A DNA stretch of 61,267 nt, counting the filler, from Platydemus manokwari (Eukaryota): NCBI GenBank assembly GCA_037951405.1. It is 6 parts of 6 records of this genome, joined end to end, with 100 filler letters (N's around TTAATTAATTAA, not from the genome) between each part and the next. Parts side by side here need not be neighbours in the genome. Positions count along the whole stretch, not along the records: positions 1 to 9,364 come from JBBMOY011259430.1; 5 more parts are not named here. One strand, given 5' to 3'. Position 1 is the stretch's first letter; every line of letters starts with the position of its first letter. Below the pieces are notes generated by a model. It searched no databases, was not told the origin of the DNA, and worked only from the letters and a program-made list of their open reading frames with translations. This document shows, piece by piece, positions 215 through 54,162 of the stretch. The position numbers and the translations under genes were made by a program.

Positions 215-2090
215 ATAATGACTGTGGTTGCGTTAACTGTGGTGGCATTCTAGGGTCATATCATCCTGCTTTTAGCAATTCTATATCCTTTTGATGTTTT
301 ACTGATATTAGATACTTTGCTATTGGTGGACAAATGAAGCACATTACTTGCCAAGAATAACCGACTACATCCTTCAAGGTTTTCATCAAAATTGTTGATG
401 AAAAGATCATTTTTATCAAAGCTATAATGTAATTTATTCCCATAGAGAATGAAAAAAAAAAGCTTCCATACAGACTATAAAACATTTCTTTAAAGTGATC
501 CGCCGATAACAAAGCTTCATAATTGAATGATCCATCTATACTTCCTTGCAATACTTTTTCACCATTTTCATTATAACTTTCTCTCGTTGTTTTGGAAATA
601 ACATGTGTTTTCTTGCTTTTTCTATATCTTCCGCTACATATATCCCATTATTGTCCATATCATTTACTGGTTTAAATGCTAAATTTCCTGTTGGTCCATT
701 TGCTTTTAATGTTTTTACATCAGTACGCGGTTTCTTATAATCCGTTCCTATCCATCTCCCATCGTCAGATCGAAATACAGGATCCATTGCATTTGAACAA
801 GAATCTATTGGTGGTGCTTTATAATTGTGTCCTAATATGATTCTCGTAACTGGTTGTAAGAATGTCTTTTGATTATTGTAAATTATCAGCATTTCGTTGG
901 TACAATGCTTATGTTTTCTTACTACAAGATTCGTCACTTTTTTACATTTAGACGTATAGATGACTTCTACTACTCGAGCGAAGGTTCCTTTTTTCTCAAA
1001 TATTATTGGTGCGACAAGTTCTGGGTTTTTTATAGCTAAAGCTAACTTGGTCTTGAAGACTTCCCTATTTAGCTTACAATCATTCAAGATTAACTCCATA
1101 TAAACTTTCCAATTAATCCTTTGGCTAGGTGATAGAAATAGTCTAACTTATTGTTAAAGTACTGTGCCAGTTTCGCATCTAACTTATTTAGTTCTCCCTT
1201 AGTATCTTTTATCTCATTCTCACTTAGATATATTCCTTTATAATTTGTGACTATGACCATTTGAGCACATCTCTTATCATGTCTTTTATGTATGAATCTC
1301 ATTGCACTTTTCCCTTCTTCACTCATGTACAGTGTTGATATTTCTTTCATTCTGATTTCAGATGTTTCTCTTGCTATCAGATAAATAACTTTCCGCAAAT
1401 TTTGTCTCCTTAAATATTTTACCATTTACTGCATGTAATCATTCCTTTTTTAGTCATGTTAATGGACTTATACATGATTAGTGATATTCCATATTCACAA
1501 TTTGTCCATGTTGTCATCTTTTTAGTTTGTGCATCAAATGTTGCTTGGAATTCTCTTAACTCTATGATGTAATGTTTTAGTGCAACTACATTTTCTAATG
1601 TCTTATTCCACACTTGACATTCAGATTCCTTACAATATCCTCCTGTTCTTCTCCAATCTGCAGGTCCTATTTTTTGTCTTGTAATGGCTTTTCCTAATGT
1701 TATTGCATATCCTTATGATGTGTAATATGCCTCTAACTCAAATGTTTGTCTGCATTTTTCCTCTGTTGGTATTTCTGGCATTGTTGCATATACTGGTTTT
1801 AATATTGTTGTGTATGCTCTTGATGATCATGAGCAATGAAATGTCAGCTCTTGATACATTATTTTACACTCTCTGGCTTTTCAAACAGAAATTCGGACTC
1901 ATGATACACATACATTTCCTTAGCTATAGATTTTGTTAAATTTACAGGATATGCCTCTGGCATTTATCTGTATCTAATGAGTGTTTTTGCCCCCATTGTG
2001 GTTTTCCGCAATCATAACCACCTATCCCTGCATCTACTCCTATTAATCCTACTAGATACATTGTTAATAATGTTTGAACTATGGTGTAAA
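215..2090 (-). pseudogene. env: Envelope glycoprotein, chuvirus-G-like (class III fusion protein), frameshifted
   Basis: Signal-peptide-like VQTLLTMYLVGLIGVDA then GYDCGKPQWGQKHSLDTDKC (YDC at 2008-2016). Further motifs: GGYCKESECQVWNKTLENVV; CKLNREV..LALAIKNP..GTFARVVEVIYTSKC..CTNEM..YNNQKTFLQPVTRII..C..PVF..DGRW; GIY..EDIEKARKHMLFP. C-terminal hydrophobic segment. Confidence 0.75.
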
Positions 2091-2157: not shown

Positions 2158-3566
2158 CTATCTGCTAATTGTTCTAACATTGTTTACTAATTTAGTCCAT
2201 CCAACATTTTGATTTATTTCATTCTCATATTCATTTGCTATTAATTGCGCTCCCTCATCTTTGATCATTATTTGATTGTCTATTAAATTTAAAATTATTT
2301 GTAATGTTGTTATCCTTTTTCCAGGTGTTTTTTCTTTATTCATTATTTTCATAACTTTCTTAACTGTTTCCTTATCTGATATTTTATTGCTTATTCGATT
2401 TATTTCGTCTTTGTATTTATCTGTGCAATGCTCTAATGCTTTTATATGCAATTTCTCATTTTGATCTAAAGCGCTGGCTTCGCCACTAAGTGCTTGTAAA
2501 TATTGTTTGATTTGTTCCTTAACTTCTTCTTTCTGATTAAATTCTCTTATTACCTGTGCATGCATCTCATTTTTATCTAATGCCCAGATTTCGTCACTAA
2601 GTGTTTTATATTTAATTCTCCATTTCGCTTTTTCTTCTATGTCAGAATCTTTAGGTGGTATGTCTTCTTCATTTAAATTTATGGGATCATCGTAATTTGT
2701 GATATTATTCTAGATTTTATTCTTAACGTCTGGTGGCCTTTCTCTAGTTTTTCTCATTGTTGTTTCTTGATCTCTTATTATCTTTCATTTCTTCTTCTGT
2801 TTCAGTCCCTTTTTCTATCTTATCTTCTTCCCTTTTTCATAATTCATTTTTTTCATTCCATTTCCCTAATTTATTTTCTTCTACATTATTTCCTTGAACT
2901 TTTTGTTTTATTATTTCTCCATTGTCATCGTAATTATATGTTATTAATTGATTTATTGGCTCATTTATGGCTTGAAATGCTCTTGATGTTGATGGTATAT
3001 ATTCTTCTCTTATCATATTTCCATAATTATCAAATGGGAATTGTGGTATATAACCATAATTATTTTGTTGTTGATATTCAGGTGGATAAACTGGTTGTTG
3101 CTGTATACGATCCTCTTCATATATTATCTCTTCTTCTATTTTATCTTCTTCCTCATTATTCATTTCTGGTGTTGTTAAGTTTATTTCCTCTCGATATGGG
3201 TAAATTATTTTCTTGATCTCAAAACTATCTCGTTCACTTTTATTGTGACTTTGCAAAACATGGATCATTGTATTGTCCTTGTAAACATTCCATACAATTT
3301 CCTGACTCATCTTGTTTTTTTCTTATCTGCTTATTCACCTTATATGTTTCTGGTGATTCTATCAATTTCATAAAATCTTTTCCTGATGACTCAGTATCTT
3401 CTGCATTCTTAGCGTCCTTCTTCTTTTTCTTCTTCTTTGATGCTTCTCTTTTCTCATCAATGCTTTTGTCATCTCCACTTGCTACTTCATTTATTATTTC
3501 ATCCAGGTCTACTGACCATTGCCTATTAACTTTTCTTTCTTTACTCTTCTTTCTACATTTTTCCAT
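2158..3566 (-). pseudogene. Charged, low-complexity and coiled-coil linker between the Ubl array and env
   Basis: ORFs 3240-3566, 2837-3310 and 2158-2565 are K/E/Q-rich and have no convincing PR/RT/RH/IN motifs. Homologous sequence precedes the second glycoprotein copy. Confidence 0.55.
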
Positions 3567-3599
3567 TTCTATTTTTTTCCCTTATTGTTGATTTTATCA

Positions 3600-5420
3600 C
3601 TTTCCTTTTCTTTTTCCTCACACTTTATCATGTTTATGTCATTATATCCCCAACATACATTGAAGCTTATATACTTCCAGGGTATCGTCTTAGGTACATT
3701 TGGTATTGGTGTTATTATGTTAACTTTCACCACATTTATCTCATCTTCTGAGAATACATTTTTTAGTTCTTCTTCCTCTATTAAGGTTCGTTGTTTATAC
3801 TTCATAATTATTTTATTTAATCCCCATTCTCTCCTATTTATGTATTGTTCTTCTATTTTCCTCTTTAAATGTTTTACTTCCTTCTTTTTCTTTATTAACT
3901 TATAATCCTCTAAATCTTCCTGATAAATATTCAACACTTCTATTTTCACTATGTATTCATCTTCTTCACTTATTAACCCTATCTCTATACTATTCAAACC
4001 TGTTGGCTTTAAACTATGATGCAAAAACTGATAATCATCATCCAATTTTCTTTAGATTTCTTCTTTCTTTCCTTTATGTTCATATTTTAATTCCATTCTA
4101 CTTGGTATGCTTTTCAATCTCACTATGTATTTTTCCTGTGGTATTCCTGTTTGTTTAGATGTCCAATTTTTAAACCACTTAATTAATGCATTTCCACTTA
4201 TTCTGAATTCTTCTATTTCTTTCTTTTCCCTTATATTCACTTTTAATTGATATACAGGTGCTGACAATAACCATATTGGTAATTTAATACTATCCTTATC
4301 ACTAGTAATTCTTTCATCCCATGTTCTCATAACTGTTATTATCCTATTTTCTTATTTGCACTTATTCGATAATATACCATAGATTGTTCGTTATTCATAA
4401 ATATTCCTTTTGTTATTTGTTCTAACGTTATTCCTAATAAAGGTTCTCCTTCTCTCTTTAACTTTCCTACATCCACCTTATATGTCATTTTTCTTATTCC
4501 TTCTCTTTTGAACGGTCAAATTCGATCTATTTCAAATTTTAGATAATCTACCGTTACTGTATCTTTTATTCTTATGATCTTTATTGCTTCATTGCCTGTA
4601 TTATCTATCATTTTAACTTCAATTTCTATTTTGTTCTCTTGTTTAATTTCTTCTGCACAAGTTTTCATATTTATTTCATATTGATCCCATGGTATTGATT
4701 TTGTTGTGTAGTCATGTTTTCCTGTATTGAATTTTATTTCTATTAAGTTTATCTCGTCGTCCTTGAATATGTCTTTTAATTTAACCTTATCCACCATTTG
4801 TTCTTGATTATGATATATGTTTATTTTTACATTCTCCCACTCTGTTTGGTCAAATTAAAGTTCTCGTATTGCTTCTCGTACTTCATTCATTGTTCGATGT
4901 TTAAACATTAACTCATTTTCCCTAATTATATTAGTGTAATAGTTAGGTTCTATTATCATCTTAACTATGTAATATGCATATGGTGCTCCTTTTTCTCCGT
5001 CTTCTTTTATTGATGTGATCACTATTTCATTCTTATAATATTCGTTTAATGGATAATACCAAAATTGAAGTTCTTCATCTAATATTTCCCATTTTCTTAA
5101 CTCTATTTCTCTTTCTAATGTGCAATTTCTTTCCCCCTGTCTATATCTTTCTTTCCTCCATCTTATTATATATTTATCCGGTGGCTTTTCTTGTTGTTTG
5201 CTAACCCATTCTCGAAACTATTGTATTGATGTGATCGCTATATCATTCTTATAATATTGATTTTAAACTTTATTTTCTTTTCACTATCGTGTATCTCTTT
5301 TCCAATTGTTATTTCTAATTCGTAAGCTGGATTTCCTTGCAATTTAACCGGTTCTCTTCTCCATTCACTAACATATTTTCCACTGCTTATTCTTCTTGTT
5401 GCAAAAGTCCATGGCCTCAT
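3600..5420 (-). pseudogene. Tandemly duplicated unit with about five ubiquitin/SUMO-like domains, directly downstream of the capsid
   Basis: The two units align: IQ*FREWVSKQQEKPPDKYIIR / IKWFKNWTSKQTGIPQEKYIVR; LDEELQFWYYPL / LDDDYQFLHHSL; LKDIFKDDEIN..KSIPW / LKNVFSEDEIN..KTIPW. Ubl-like patterns include VKHLKRKIEEQ...KIIMKYKQRTLIEEEELKNVF and TVDYLKFEI. Confidence 0.6.
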
Positions 5421-6400
5421 CATGGCTATAACATTATTCTCTTTATTTTTATCGTCTTTAATTTGAAACTGTGTTAACAGTTTGTTTAATTGTTCCCATG
5501 TTACATTCATGTCAGGGTTTTTTTCATGATCTTTAGTCGCTATGTTATTTTTACTAGTAGTCGGTATCTCTTTTTTATTTTTCTTAAATGTTACTGCACT
5601 TATTAATGGATAATTTCCAGGTATCCCATAATTTATATTATGATTTGTTAAACTATTTGACATGTAAATAATTTCAACTCTTCTAGCTTTTTGAACTAAT
5701 TTCTCAAAATTTTTATATTCTGCTAATGCTATTGGACTTATTAATATGAGTATTATTTCCCTTCTAAATTGATCTATAACCATTTGCTCGCGACCCTCTA
5801 CAGATACATATTTGCCATAAGCCTTAATTACTAATTCTTTTATTGCCATTGAATATTCTCCTACACTTTCACCAGACATTTGGTATCTATCATTAAATTG
5901 CTTTACATAAAATTCATGCACATCATCTCCCACAACTAATTTGCTTTTTAATTCCCTAACTAAATCCTTATAACATTTAATTTCTTTAAAATCTAATCCT
6001 TGTAATGCTTGTAACGCCTATGATTTTAAATACAATGACAATCTTTGAAATTGTTCTGCCTGCGTCAAGCTATATGCTTCAGTTAATCTATTATATTCAT
6101 TGAAGAAATCATCAAACCCTTCCTGTTTTCCATCATATGGGTTAATTGGTATATACACATTTTTGCTATTCATAATTACATCATTCATTTTGTCTAATAG
6201 TGCTTTATATTTTACAATTAATTCACTATCTATTTGGGTGCATATTTCAATTATTTATCCATCAATTTGGGTGCTTATTTCTCTACAATCGATTATTTCA
6301 CTATCAAATTGGGGGCTTATCTCTCTACAATTCACTATTTCACTATCTATATCAATTTGGGTGCTTAGATTTTCTAAATTATTTCCTAATATTATTGTTC
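5238..6400 (-). pseudogene. gag: Gag capsid (retrotransposon gag, Ty3/gypsy-like) with an in-frame stop at 6018-6020
   Basis: Manual translation: PINPYDGKQEGFDDFFNEYNRLTEAYSLTQAEQFQRLSLYLKS*ALQAL...FNDRYQMSGESVGEYSMAIKELV (MHR-like QxxxESVxEY). The N-terminal part has ISTQID-type repeats. No CCHC knuckle seen. Confidence 0.85.
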
Positions 6401-6775
6401 AATTTGAACTACTTTTTTCGGTAAATTACTACTGCTAAATTATGTTGATTCACACTGCTTATCAAACTTCAATTAATATCAAACTACCTAAGTCTATTAA
6501 CGCTTTTCTCAGATATTTAATCAACACTTTTCGTGGAGTAAACTTGAAACTTTTCCTGGAACAATCGATGATATTACGAAACAGACTTATTAAGTTATCT
6601 ATCTTCTTACTAATTAATGTCACTTAGAGCAGGGTGTAGACCTCTCAAATTGTTAAATTTGTTGCGATAAAGTTGAAAACCTTAATCTATTTTTCTTCTT
6701 TTTATATACCGAAGTTACAAATTATGCGTCGCTAAACTAGCTCTCCGGTTCACGCAATAAAAACGCGCTTTAATT

Positions 6776-6915
6776 ATCAAATTTATCAAATGCTCCTTGG
6801 CTCAAATTGACTTTATCTCTAGCTCCTTGGCTCAATTTAACTTTATCAACTTTATCTATAGCTCCTTGGTTTGATTCGAATTTATCAAATTTATCAAATG
6901 CTCCTTGGCTTAATT
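6776..6915 (-). repeat. Short tandem repeats in the retroelement leader (LSQGA-x-DK in ORF 6770-6982)
   Basis: GCTCCTTGG occurs four times with TTATCAAA/CTTTATC spacers. Confidence 0.75.
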
Positions 6916-7014
6916 CAATTTCGTTTATTTTATCTATTCTAATTCTAGTAATTTCTAACTTCACTAATTTACCTATTTGCAACTTTAACTTCTCAATTTT
7001 GAATTCACAATTTC

Positions 7015-7267
7015 AAACTTTTCACTAATCGAGCACCAATTATCTTATTCAAATTTAATGGTTAATTTTAAAACTTTAAACTTAATTTTTACTTCCAAAT
7101 TTATCCTCACCCGTATCACCAATTGTTGTTTAACTTTTAACGATTTTTTACACAAATTTCTCCTCACTCGAACACCAGTTGTTGTTACTTAATTTCTAAT
7201 TTTACACCTTCAACTTTTAATAATTTTTAAACTAAAATTTCTCCTCACTCGGTTACCAATTGATGTT
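7015..7267 (-). repeat. Array of four PBS-like motifs with AT-rich spacers
   Basis: Minus strand: TGGTAACCGAGTGAGGAG (from 7258), TGGTGTTCGAGTGAGGAG (7177), TGGTGATACGGGTGAGGAT (7121), TGGTGCTCGATTAGTGAA (7038). The first three are preceded by AACA(A/T)CA and followed by AAATTT. Confidence 0.7.
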
Positions 7268-8553
7268 TATTATTTATACTTGCAAACTTCTAATGATTTT
7301 TCAAACAAATTGTTATGTTTGGGGCTTGCTAATTTTATTTCTTATCTTATCAGTCTCGTAATTCAATTTATCCTTATTATTGTTGATGATCACTGTTGTC
7401 TTAATCAGTCACACGTGGTTCTGATTAAGCCCTAGGTACGAACTATTGAAACTATTTATTTCTTTCTTCGCCTCGCGTTTATATGATGATAATATCAAAC
7501 GGCAAAAATGATCAATTATTACTACCAAAATTATTCCTATGTCAAGACTATGAATTTTAACAAAACTATCAGTCTCTATTTTAATTCTATCAGTCTCAAA
7601 AACTTTGATATCAATATTATCAATTCTTACTCAAATCAATAACAAACTCGTTGACTACAAAATGTTTATTGACATCAAATTTACACTAAACAATTATATA
7701 AATTACTACGTTTACAATGGTTAAATATACAATTCAAAAATACGAACAACCTTATCAAGCTTCTGGGGAAGATTTACGATTAATAGACTGCATTCTATTG
7801 CAGCAAAACCACCTTTCAAGATATTTGAGACAAAGCTCTATAGTAAAATAATATACACGGCGTATATAGTATTGATCAGTGGTTTACAGAATTAATCTGA
7901 CTTACGTTAACGAGCATATACTTGAACAATGGCTGTGGCAAATATGGATAGGATCGAATACGAGCTTCTACTGGCGACTTCACGTAACAGGAGGTTTTGT
8001 GTAGTTTGTAACGGATTATTCTATGTTACAGGCAGTTCGAATGTTATGACGTTTCCCCCCCTATTTATATGAATCGGGAGACGAATTTCGTCGTCATGGA
8101 TTATTGGTGAAAATGGGTTCAATTAAATTTATTCCCATGAGATTTCCCTTTTATTTTATTAAAATAAACTTGCTCGTTAACTTTGAGATAATGAAATATA
8201 AATAATTTAATATTCTTCTACGTTTAATTCTTAACATTTTCTTGGAAAGGTGCTATAATATTTATCAACCGTAAATAAATTATCATTATCATTTTATGAT
8301 AATAATAATTATTATTATTCTTATTTTTTACCAATTCAATAATCAACCAGAAGCTTGATTTACAAAATAAAATTTAATTAATTATAAAAAAGGTAAAAAT
8401 AAAATACATTGCTTGATTAACCAAGCCATTTATAAAAATTGGTACAATAATAACCGCTTGAATAATCAAGCCTGAAAATTGCTACACTTATTTATAAAAA
8501 TCGATATCAAATGTTGTCAAGCGAAACTATTTGAATGGCAAAAATTTGTTACA
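7261..8553 (-). repeat. Putative 5' LTR (~1.3 kb)
   Basis: Minus strand starts TGTAAC (8553) and ends AACATCA (7261), followed after 2 nt by TGG of a PBS-like site. Internal TATA box. No second LTR is present to confirm the boundaries. Confidence 0.55.
8055..8070 (-). promoter_or_regulatory. TATA box of the putative LTR
   Basis: Minus strand reads ATATAAATAGGGGGGG and points toward gag. Confidence 0.5.
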
Positions 8554-9364: not shown

Positions 9365-9464
9365 NNNNNNNNNNNNNNNNNNNNNNNNNNNNNNNNNNNN
9401 NNNNNNNNTTAATTAATTAANNNNNNNNNNNNNNNNNNNNNNNNNNNNNNNNNNNNNNNNNNNN
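9365..9464. other. Artificial contig spacer
   Basis: N44-TTAATTAATTAA-N44, which has stops in all frames. Confidence 0.95.
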
Positions 9465-9879
9465 AAATATTAAATAGACTATAGATTAAAAAGCTCCTGA
9501 AATTTGATTATTTGAAAAAATGAAAAAAGTATGTCGAATTACAATTTATTTAAAATTAGTGAAGATCCCTTTTTAACATTAGAAGCGAATTATTTTATAA
9601 AAATAAGTAATTATGCTATTAAATATATCTGTAATTAACTAACTCCATTTATAATTAAAAAGTTTAAATTTAAAAAGTCAAATAATAAAGTGGTTAGAAA
9701 GGGAGCTTGGTTTAAAAATATGTTTTATCCATATTAGACATCTTAAAAATGAGATATTAACTGAATTATACGAATAAATAAAACATAGCAGTTATATATA
9801 AAATTAAGTTATAAAATTATCTCATGTGCGAAAATTCTTTGTACGAAAGTAGGTTAAAGGACCCTTTTTCTTAACTTAA
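9465..9879 (+). mobile_element. MITE family A copy (left end cut by the gap)
   Basis: Core CTCCTGAAATTTGATTATTTGAAAA and right end GGACCCTTTTTCTTAACTTAA are shared with three other copies. Confidence 0.7.
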
Positions 9880-20224: not shown

Positions 20225-20324
20225 NNNNNNNNNNNNNNNNNNNNNNNNNNNNNNNNNNNNNNNNNNNNTTAATTAATTAANNNNNNNNNNNNNNNNNNNN
20301 NNNNNNNNNNNNNNNNNNNNNNNN
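20225..20324. other. Artificial contig spacer
   Basis: Same 100-bp linker. Confidence 0.95.
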
Positions 20325-20367
20325 GAATCGTAAAAAATCGTATTTTATCATATTCTGTTAATTATAA

Positions 20368-29319: not shown

Positions 29320-29419
29320 NNNNNNNNNNNNNNNNNNNNNNNNNNNNNNNNNNNNNNNNNNNNTTAATTAATTAANNNNNNNNNNNNNNNNNNNNNNNNN
29401 NNNNNNNNNNNNNNNNNNN
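29320..29419. other. Artificial contig spacer
   Basis: Same 100-bp linker. Confidence 0.95.
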
Positions 29420-38579: not shown

Positions 38580-39310
38580 TGGAACACGTGGTACTGAAGA
38601 GCAATTAATAATGTACAAGACTAATTCTTACAAATGCCCATTAATGTTACTGAAAAAAGCAAAATTTAGAGAAATTAAAGTGACATTGTTCAAGGAAATT
38701 AATTTTTTAAAGAATTAAATATAGGCACGCCAACAGACACAGTAGAAATAAAAATGAAAGAAACACCAGTACTATATATGGCTAATAAAACCAGTATTGT
38801 AATGGGATTTTGCCTTAAGGAGTTGATAAGAAGTGTGCACAACAATGGATAGTCACAAATTACAAGGGGATGTCTCTAGGTGAATATGAAATGAAAATGT
38901 AAAAACAGAGCTGAGCAAGTAGGGGTTAAGTTATCCCAGTATTTCGACAACAAAATTGATTATTTTTATCACCTTAATTAGATATATTTGAAGAAAATGT
39001 ACATGGGAATGCTGTTTAACAAATCTAAGACAAGGCGCGAAGTTTTACAAGCAAATATTGTTTTATCAGTAACAAATTAGGAACTGATAGTTCCATTGAT
39101 ATTTGATGATAAAGAAACGTTCGAAAGAGTAGTAGGAGATATTACTTTCATATTTCAATGCAGAATGGTGAACAATTTACTAACTAGGAAATATGACTAC
39201 TATGTAAATGAAATGAATATAATATACAACAATAGACAGCTATTCTTATAACCAGAAACAAGAATTGTATTGAGAGAAAATTGCAAAGCAGTAAAAAGAG
39301 GCTTATATTC
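38580..39310 (+). pseudogene. env: Second retroelement copy: central part of the chuvirus-like glycoprotein
   Basis: DKKCAQQWIVTNYKG..LSQYFDNKIDYFYHL..ELIVPLIFDDKETFERVVG..NEMNIIYNNRQLFL*PETRIVL aligns with ORFs 1090-1425 and 536-1099. Confidence 0.85.
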
Positions 39311-39522
39311 AAACAAGCTAAATCTCATAAAGATATCTTAAGAAATCACTGGAAAATAATAACCAATCGGAAGCCATAGATAAGATACATCTATTATTAA
39401 CATTCGCTATTAGTTGGAACGTCGCGAGTATTTTCCAGTCCGGAGAAAATCAAACAATAAATCAGTCAAGCGTAAAATGAACTCTCCTGGCTACATAAAC
39501 AAAAATAATTTTTAAATCTTAA

Positions 39523-40817: not shown

Positions 40818-40917
40818 NNNNNNNNNNNNNNNNNNNNNNNNNNNNNNNNNNNNNNNNNNNNTTAATTAATTAANNNNNNNNNNNNNNNNNNNNNNNNNNN
40901 NNNNNNNNNNNNNNNNN
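40818..40917. other. Artificial contig spacer
   Basis: Same 100-bp linker. Confidence 0.95.
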
Positions 40918-51574: not shown

Positions 51575-51674
51575 NNNNNNNNNNNNNNNNNNNNNNNNNN
51601 NNNNNNNNNNNNNNNNNNTTAATTAATTAANNNNNNNNNNNNNNNNNNNNNNNNNNNNNNNNNNNNNNNNNNNN
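51575..51674. other. Artificial contig spacer
   Basis: Same 100-bp linker. Confidence 0.95.
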
Positions 51675-54162
51675 GTTCTTACATTGTATTACTGATATAT
51701 TTGGAAAGAGATTTTGAATGTGGATTCTCTATTTTAAAACATATTGAAAGATTCAATATATCCTATTCGAACATGATTATGAAGAAGATCTAATAAGTGG
51801 AAACAATCTGTTAGAATTATCAATTAGAATGATGATTATAAAATCTATTATTTGCATGGAATTGTTTAAATTGCCCCAGATAACCAGATTAAAACAAAAT
51901 ACAATATGAAGCTACAAGAATCTTTTCAAAAGATCTTTATCAATTTATATTTTATTGGTTTGATTTTTCTCTCTGTTCGATACTGTTATTGTAGTAAAAG
52001 AATATTTTTCAATTATTGGAGAGTTAAAAAACTTATTAGTAAGAGAGAATTTCTTACCTAGGTAGTTACAGATACAATATTATTTTTCAAGAATATTGTT
52101 ATTATATTTTTCCGGTTCCAATAATGTGTCGAGGGATAATAAATATTCACAATATCTAACAAATCTAATAAACAATAACTAATTTGTTATGCCTTGACAA
52201 AGCGGAATATATCTTTACATCAGTTTATTAATAAGTTTAGAATTTTTAAAATTCACAAACCAAGACTAGTGCGATATCAAAGAACGATAAGGATGGATAA
52301 ATTAAATAAAGAAAATCGTCAAATTGAATATTTCTATAAATAATATTGGAAATATATCAGTGTGGAAGACACTCCAGTTATCAATGATTGGTGATAACAT
52401 TTACTTGTAGCTTGTAATCAAACCGATAGAAAATTGTTGATAACTTAGGAGGATTGAGTAGAACCATTGAATAGATGGTTGGAACAAATAAATATTCTGG
52501 ATAGATTCTTCATTACATAATTCATGTTTCTATACAAGAATATTTGGAAATTATAAAATTATCTTGCAATTTACATTTATCTGGAGATTTAGTTTATTAT
52601 TTGAGAAGATTTTATCGATGATTTAAAATAGATAAAATCATTAAAGAGATTATCACAGAAATTATCTCGAATAACTGATTGATTATCTCTGGGAAAAATT
52701 GTACAAGAATTTCAAGAATTTGACCAAATAATAGAAAATACTGGTAAAATCAATAAACAGTATTTATCAATAAGTATTTCTCATTTATCTCTGATCACTA
52801 ATCTGATGAATTAGCTAATAATTATTGTAAAACTAGAGAGCTTAATGGGTGAACAATACAAACAATTTCAATATATTTTCCATCGATAGAACAGTTTTCT
52901 AGTCTTTATTGTTTTAGATGGAAATGATAATGAACGGTCAATTTGACTGGCATCAAAAGCACAACCAGAAACTCTTAAATCGTCATTTTAACATGTTAAA
53001 GGTTCTCATATTTAATAAAGTATTTTTATCTTGCTTCATGAAACCATTTATCACAGAATCAATGGTCAGTGTATCCCATTATCAAATGGATCATCAATCA
53101 TCATCAAACCGTTTAAAATAACCAAAATTTTCTTCAAAAGCATAATATTTCTTTGAGCGATTGTAAGGGTATATCTCAGAAACGTAACAGTAACCGATAC
53201 TATAAATACAAATGATTCCCTCGTCATGGTCAGACCTAGGGAGAATTAAAATAATTTATATCAAATACGTGAAGTGAAGTGGTCGAAAATAAGATATAAT
53301 AAATTCCATATTTTCAGTCAGCTATGCTCGTATCTAGCTATTGATAATTTGCGTGTCAGTATCATACAGTCTCATTATCCAATATCACTATTACTTACCA
53401 TATGACTGTGAGGATTTGTTGTAATATGATTTTAGTATCACTTTGGCCCATTACTGACATCACAATGGAATTGTTTAATGTAATGGGTATGACAGCTTAG
53501 GTGATAATCTAAATAATGTCGCAGTACTGCCCAAGGGTCTTTCTGTATCCCAAATCTGAATCCCAATTTAGAGCTTGTTAATGACGAATACTTCACAATA
53601 AGTGAACATCAAAATAATAATTTTCTTAGCAATTAATATTGTTTTCATCCATTTAATGAGGCTATATAATCTTGAGAAATGCTTTAAAATAATCTTATCT
53701 TAAAGCTTCCCGAATATTAGCATCATTTATTAATACGTGAAAAAACCAAACCACCTGGCTTAATCAAGTAGGTGATCTAGTTATAAAGTTTCACATCATT
53801 TATGTTCATTTATCATTGAAAAATAATTGGTGACCACAACCTTGGAATTCATCACATACATGGCTTCTTTACAATGAACAGAAATGTTATAATGATATCA
53901 TATCATAACATATTATTATGTTGGGCCTGGTTTTGTTATTCCAGTATCTGTTGCATGTTACTTGTTGACTGGTATAATTCCATAAGAAAACATCAGTTAA
54001 AATGGAGTCTAAGAATTGCAAACGAATATTCGAACAAATCAAACTGATCATTTCCTATTTAAAATGATTGATTACATATAAATTGATTTTCTTTCGATTT
54101 CCTATGAAGGAATTTCCTATCTATTCTTACAAATTTCCTTATATTCATTATATGCCATATAT

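Follow-up and report, generated by a model that had tools for sequence, protein, structure and literature searches.

What does it mean when a retrotransposon carries several primer binding sites (PBSs) in a row, given that a single site is assumed for LTR elements? The question is raised by positions 7015..7267 of a 61,267-nucleotide stretch of joined Platydemus manokwari contigs (assembly GCA_037951405.1; hereafter the window), for which the original prediction had described four tandem, non-identical PBS-like motifs following an LTR. These motifs lie within an LTR element on the minus strand that bears gag and env and occurs in many copies; its contig occupies positions 1 to ~9364 of the window. 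The linkers of the window and the landmarks of the 5' part of the element are as follows.

9365-9465, 20225-20325, 29320-29419, 40818-40917 and 51575-51675: N-run linkers joining contigs
7311..8486, minus strand: 5' LTR, ~1.18 kb, TG...CA, from the alignment of other copies
7310..7311, minus strand: deletion junction at which the true tRNA-Met PBS is gone, from the alignment with copy L002
7242..7268, minus strand: decayed unit 1, a PBS-like core (7242-7258) preceded by LTR-end-like context; 15/18 with tRNA-Met, -25.1 kcal/mol
7161..7187, minus strand: decayed unit 2, core 7161-7177; 15/18, -26.7 kcal/mol
7104..7131, minus strand: decayed unit 3, core 7104-7121; matching 14/18 of the tRNA-Met gene L075 and, without gaps, 15/18 of a second Met isodecoder
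7019..7048, minus strand: decayed unit 4, the most distal, 5' half intact and 3' half broken; 13/18, -18.5 kcal/mol

The LTR is multi-copy by the best 40 scored matches of 575 candidates for the TG...CA stretch 8486..7311. Copies L008, L014, L019, L024 and L029 align starting at 8486 and ending at or within a few nucleotides of 7311, where the flanks diverge; the alignments of L009 and L013 reach further, to ~8605. Downstream of this LTR the four TGGT-initiated motifs are indeed found, on the minus strand, starting at 7258, 7177, 7121 and 7038 (spacing 81, 56 and 83 nt). The predicted LTR-end-like context, AACA(A/T)CA, precedes three of them at a distance of 2 nt, and the fourth has GATAAT and the broken 3' half; several other copies have a unit resembling unit 4 at the same place. 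A pattern derived post hoc from the motifs matches three times in the window, always within the array, against 0.03 matches expected from 100 shuffles. The predicted position after the LTR holds only in the broad sense, as the nearest motif begins 53 nt from the LTR end at 7311, not 2-4 nt as for a functional PBS, and the LTR end passes straight into spacer sequence. In a global alignment with L002, the window copy is short of the PBS alone (23 nt), while by an 86% local match it is without the PBS and also without the next unit. Searching with the PBS-less junction pattern recovered only the window copy and one unrelated match; no spread of this form was found. Because the window copy has no real PBS, its four motifs represent the tail of a longer array; it is a one-off deletion derivative and likely dead. 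None of the four is a near-complete 18-nt tRNA complement: in order, they match tRNA-Met at 15, 15, 14 and 13 of 18 bases, the stretch paired without interruption at the 3' end of tRNA-Met is 4-6 nt long, and duplex energies are -18.5 to -26.7 kcal/mol versus -39.3 kcal/mol for a perfect site.

Which tRNA does the intact family use? The host genome contains an elongator tRNA-Met(CAT) gene (L075), and the family PBS is the exact 18/18 complement of its 3' 18 nt including CCA. The complement of an Ile(TAT) gene differs at 2/18 positions, so that of the two core types initially suggested, Met and Ile(UAU), the former holds. A tRNA complement directly after the 5' LTR is therefore a property of the family that the window copy lacks. 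tRNA-Met is the primer of the family, as established by the exact 18/18 site, which sits 2 nt after CA at 36 places in the genome, and by a read-through fossil at L143:481-519 (G000:C1119552), where a related LTR end is followed by tRNA-Met complement (38/39 nt) as far as tRNA position 38. At L143:451-519 the LTR end and this 39-nt tRNA-Met copy are followed by unrelated DNA, the sole read-through of its kind found. For HIV-1, the accessible portion of PMC13191261 reports a minor stop of plus-strand synthesis at modified A37, and by analogy tRNA-Met may be modified at the corresponding position here. In each of the distant relatives L193 and L198 (gag ~31% identical), just one Met PBS is present. 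Of 30 T-arm matches that were fetched, ARAGORN calls two as tRNA and most resemble a tRNA-derived SINE; L060-L088 form a multi-copy, tRNA-derived SINE-like family whose T-arm is common to tRNA-Met. Three tRNA-Met(CAT) genes (L079, L089 and L133) have an intron-like 17-nt insert after the anticodon, alongside uninterrupted copies.

Is the array peculiar to the window, or do other copies carry it? We examined 66 loci, of which 52 have an LTR-adjacent first site and 14, the window copy among them, were dropped. With a motif model applied to at most 450 nt after the first site, 158 downstream units were called in 42 of the 52 copies, 0-8 per copy, against 0-1 calls per shuffled set in three shuffles. 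The family is thus not single-site throughout, and the proposal that the motifs reflect successive duplications of the LTR-end/PBS junction gains family-wide support. Half of the 52 copies had been recruited by array similarity and the other 26 by the exact-PBS pattern only; units are present in 16 of the latter. In a split test against circularity, 74 units were called from the 5' block alone and 44 of them have a 3' block with at most two mismatches (0 in 50 shuffles). Among 42 gag-selected loci most are rearranged or have too little upstream DNA, and the PBS-bearing ones show 0-2 extra cores, a sample from which the frequency of arrays is not unbiased.

The repeats are polarised. First sites are on average 92.5% intact, and in 24 of the 26 copies found by BLAST they match at 16-18/18, whereas only one of the 158 downstream units reaches at least 16/18, and it is apparently chimeric. 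This sole downstream 18/18 site is in L037: behind a five-unit array comes a further perfect PBS that lacks LTR context, and then the leader of a different subfamily; L037 is likely a chimera. Units further from the LTR tend to be less identical to the PBS (rho -0.37), as do those of higher rank (rho -0.30; not one of 5000 within-array permutations was as low, although such p-values overstate independence since the copies are related and old). The decay with distance lies mainly in the 3' half, which falls from 0.87 at rank 1 to 0.50 at rank 7. The 8 nt before units match the LTR end of their own copy better than that of another (4.94 versus 4.38 +/- 0.13). When the block under study is left out of calling, retention is 0.43-0.76 for G, 0.46-0.58 for C and 0.74-0.85 for A and T, and the centre of the units ranges from 3 to 7 nt. 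Base retention reflects general decay toward the A-rich composition of the strand, together with insertions and deletions in the run of central C bases, and there is no protected seed. Two further candidates were tried and rejected. A coding array is contradicted by unit spacings that are flat modulo 3 (41/61/56 and 47/58/41), with no reading frame, and by a frame relation of the last unit to the downstream stretch that is not fixed (6/7/6). A hairpin array finds no folding signal, the mean z being 0.23 over 28 arrays and +2.4 for the window.

Natural variants in unit number are available in the genome. One leader type is common to 16 contigs and in each starts directly behind a PBS core: nine carry the true PBS only, two have one additional unit and three have two; of the remaining two contigs, one shows two cores with no first site detected and the other is a chimera. 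At least four LTR-end types stand before this leader. L102 and L112 are alike at 57/60 positions of the LTR end and 81/84 of the leader, and differ by one 72-nt unit whose joint lies inside the core. Variants with zero, one and two extra units imply that the array is dispensable, that it changes by whole units and that the cores mark the joints. The leader is also full of other tandem repeats. Priming at downstream units gained no support: 12 copies show an early loss of homology, and none of the breaks is clearly at the CA of a unit.

Based on these observations, we propose that the array consists of a variable number of decayed copies of the LTR-end/tRNA-Met-PBS junction, that it probably expands and contracts through template switching between these repeats as a by-product of reverse transcription, and that only the LTR-adjacent site is likely to prime. 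It is best read as a tolerated, polarised minisatellite of LTR end plus PBS. In reverse transcription, the tRNA serves as template for a new PBS while plus-strand strong-stop DNA is made, and it is through the PBS that the second-strand transfer anneals. An early duplication of the U5 end, the PBS and ~20-60 nt of leader would have created a second junction. The first site would then be kept perfect by recopying from the tRNA in each cycle, while downstream units, without tRNA repair, would decay. Homology within the shared core may allow plus-strand strong-stop DNA to be mis-transferred or the growing minus strand to switch by copy choice, and switching between cores would delete or add units and join the LTR of one subfamily to the leader of another. 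Three observations count against a pure by-product. In the six closest array pairs the core matches better than the spacer (G 0.87 versus 0.70, C 0.73 versus 0.44), which hints at constraint, and one unit scores at least 16/18 versus 7.9 after column permutation, both the core/spacer and the strong-unit tests being biased toward constraint by the calling threshold and alignment anchoring. The near-absence of fresh duplicates speaks against pure drift, as frequent birth from the first site would not predict it. Finally, unit types recur in subfamilies with different LTR ends.

Could the repeats be maintained for a purpose? In its boldest form, this idea would have an env-bearing, Gypsy-like lineage maintain a polarised, CRISPR-like junction record as a selected device, in which capped, half-strength tRNA-Met sites serve primer loading or strong-stop capture and recombination joints swap LTRs, leaders and gag genes; we regard this as possible but doubtful. 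A plainer version, which we consider unlikely, holds that the units are half-sites that anneal tRNA-Met or plus-strand strong-stop DNA and that selection holds them under full priming strength, for primer packaging, second-strand transfer or as spare sites, without starting internal cDNA. The median duplex energy of the units, -18.9 kcal/mol, agrees with this version, as do the better retention of G and C in core than in spacer and the LTR-end-like context, which lengthens the homology to strong-stop DNA. There is also a ceiling at 15/18, the 5' and 3' halves are anticorrelated (r -0.33), and six units pair at -27 kcal/mol or stronger versus 13 after shuffling of the halves; yet the calling threshold and shared ancestry can yield the anticorrelation and part of the ceiling. 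Moreover, the single-PBS subfamily spread without an array, no copy was found that ends at the CA of a downstream unit, and the PBS-less junction of the window copy shows no spread.

The same units have been suggested to act as a decoy, or sponge, which would draw off 3' tRNA-Met fragments and so prevent them from blocking priming or silencing the RNA at the PBS. Repression by such fragments through the PBS is documented for mouse ERVs in the part of PMC7472051 available, and the variable centre of the units lies opposite nucleotides 10-14 of an 18-nt fragment, as in a bulged sponge, with a central mismatch in 157 of the 158 units. A perfect 2-8 seed for this fragment is found in 31/158 units, where independent columns predict 19, and in two of the four window motifs. 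The full seed is however absent from the remaining 127 units, and once left out of calling no block is specially kept: seed G retention (0.44-0.74) is no better than that of the central C (0.46-0.58). It is the 3' block whose match declines with distance (0.87 to 0.50), the seed of a 22-nt fragment falls outside the 18-nt site, and mismatches outside the seed also relieve the action of the fragments, according to the same portion of PMC7472051. We do not favour the decoy, which now appears improbable.

Slightly more improbable still is a role as protein or snRNP binding sites, such as a Gag packaging signal or a U1-type donor-like GTAA/GTGAG, derived from the PBS by chance. Position 5 is A in half of the units, which creates the donor-like word TG/GTAA, but G-to-A change is a general trend of this A-rich strand. 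The array stands upstream of a conserved TATA-like block, so that it would be carried only by LTR-initiated RNA, and an ATG-less coding-like stretch comes after it; against this role weigh the lack of a structure signal and the subfamily that does without an array.

The weakest reading, that each motif is a PBS for a separate host tRNA and permits alternative priming, is very improbable: although unit 3 fits the second Met isodecoder at 15/18 ungapped and unit 4 fits best with Thr(TGT), whose end is Met-like, Met(CAT) is best for the other three window motifs, 15/18 ungapped to any of 51 ends is reached in six of 158 units and exceeded in one, and a centre of 3-7 nt is unlike tRNA-templated sites. 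The comparison used 56 ARAGORN calls from 58 loci (two were dropped as the T-loop was not parsable), giving 51 distinct 3' ends in a set that is incomplete, being without Gln, Glu, Trp and others, and that may include contaminant genes. Against this set the best fit of any window motif is 15/18; matching the motifs to tRNA 3' ends thus supported a Met origin, with no complete match.

We return to the junction minisatellite and to the element that carries it, the remainder of which comprises the following.

6770..7012, minus strand: leader stretch directly after the array, with a coding-like signal, no ATG and 30/39-nt tandem repeats
6698..6714, minus strand: conserved TATA-like block in the leader; a strict regular expression is matched by 8/25 long copies
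5667..6176, minus strand: gag capsid-like region interrupted by a single stop and sharing 55% identity with L147 gag
536..1425, minus strand: env-like gene in pieces, Monjiviricetes-type fusion glycoprotein (PF24664)

In 25 copies, the sense frame of 6770-7012 (minus strand) has a pN/pS of 0.33, against 0.61 and 0.84 in other frames and 0.40, with two stops, in the same-phase antisense frame, a test controlled by other frames only. Third positions vary at 0.22 versus 0.11 and 0.09, and stops number 8 in 750 codons versus 155 and 134; the sense frame has no Pfam match. Its tandem repeats have periods of 24, 30, 36, 39 and 48. About 300 nt past the array, a conserved, GC-richer block (6698-6750, minus strand) closes with the TATA-like word, and the TATA-like block at 6698..6714 is a possible internal promoter. 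The gag of the sister L147 matches PNMA (E 4.5e-6, over the Pfam cut-off) and Retrotrans_gag (E 1.3e-4, just under it), while the window's own gag pieces have no relevant Pfam match. PF24664 is matched with E 8.4e-29 by 539-1147 and with E 0.022 by 1093-1425, and in this fragmented assembly the contig starts inside env, at window position 1. Env matches in the genome number over 150; one of them, a second, broken env-like fragment of 43% identity, lies on a different contig at window ~38994-39327 (G000:C702208:9575-9907). Between gag and env, 2158-5217 (minus strand) contains several broken frames, some ubiquitin-like by eye only and without Pfam support; the DNA of this stretch is ~80% conserved in L145, which also has 2.5 kb that is not in the window. 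Neither the window nor the nearest copies that were read showed a pol, and querying a protein database with gag turned up no relatives of greater length. Judged indirectly, from the coding order of a distant relative, the element is likely a Gypsy element: L196 has gag, env and then PR-RT-RH-INT in one frame. In L196 (G000:C1468085; gag 33% and env 40% identical) this single long frame, from 1515, encodes gag with zinc knuckles, a Monjiviricetes-type glycoprotein, PR, RT, RNase H and integrase. Env thus stands between gag and pol in L196, and the gag-then-env order is also seen in the window.

How does the array compare with known systems? The canonical U5-PBS of Ty3/Gypsy elements and retroviruses shares the CA end of the LTR, the 2-nt spacer, the 18-nt complement of a tRNA 3' end and the read-through fossil; here, in contrast, the junction is repeated up to eight further times downstream, in decayed form. 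As far as the accessible text of PMC3185550 goes, HIV-1 MAL-type isolates carry a partial PBS duplication (a 23-nt insertion in 14% of isolates) that is likewise PBS-derived, directly downstream of the true PBS, point-mutated and polymorphic, but it is one partial copy without LTR-end context, whereas the present array is multi-unit, polarised and variable in number. The multiple PPTs of Sireviruses, in the excerpted text of PMC2829016, are similarly a reverse-transcription priming signal repeated beside the LTR family-wide; they concern the plus-strand primer, in identical copies, in plant Copia elements, and the site here is the minus-strand one, with extras that are all degenerate. A Monjiviricetes-type fusion glycoprotein in an LTR retrotransposon is also known from Anakin, a BEL-Pao element with a chuvirus-like glycoprotein in the portion of PMC7642597 available; unlike in Anakin, the glycoprotein of L196 is located between gag and a PR-RT-RH-INT pol matching Gypsy-type Pfam models. 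Two proposed counterparts were rejected: Troyka has different termini and no mention of a PBS in the available part of PMC12440569, and the 'PBS-like' sequence of Achilles is a single site in the corresponding part of PMC4580426. A search of mainly freely accessible literature found no printed report of a multiple, tandem, duplicated or decoy PBS array in retrotransposons.

The array is real and family-wide, and apparently undescribed. Annotators should be aware that a PBS-like match behind an LTR may be a relic, and that such matches can lead to miscalled LTR ends. With up to eight extra decayed junctions, and sister variants that have zero, one or two units, the family is a natural test bed for mis-transfer by reverse transcriptase at the PBS, for LTR swaps between subfamilies and for competition of partial sites for the tRNA or its fragments.
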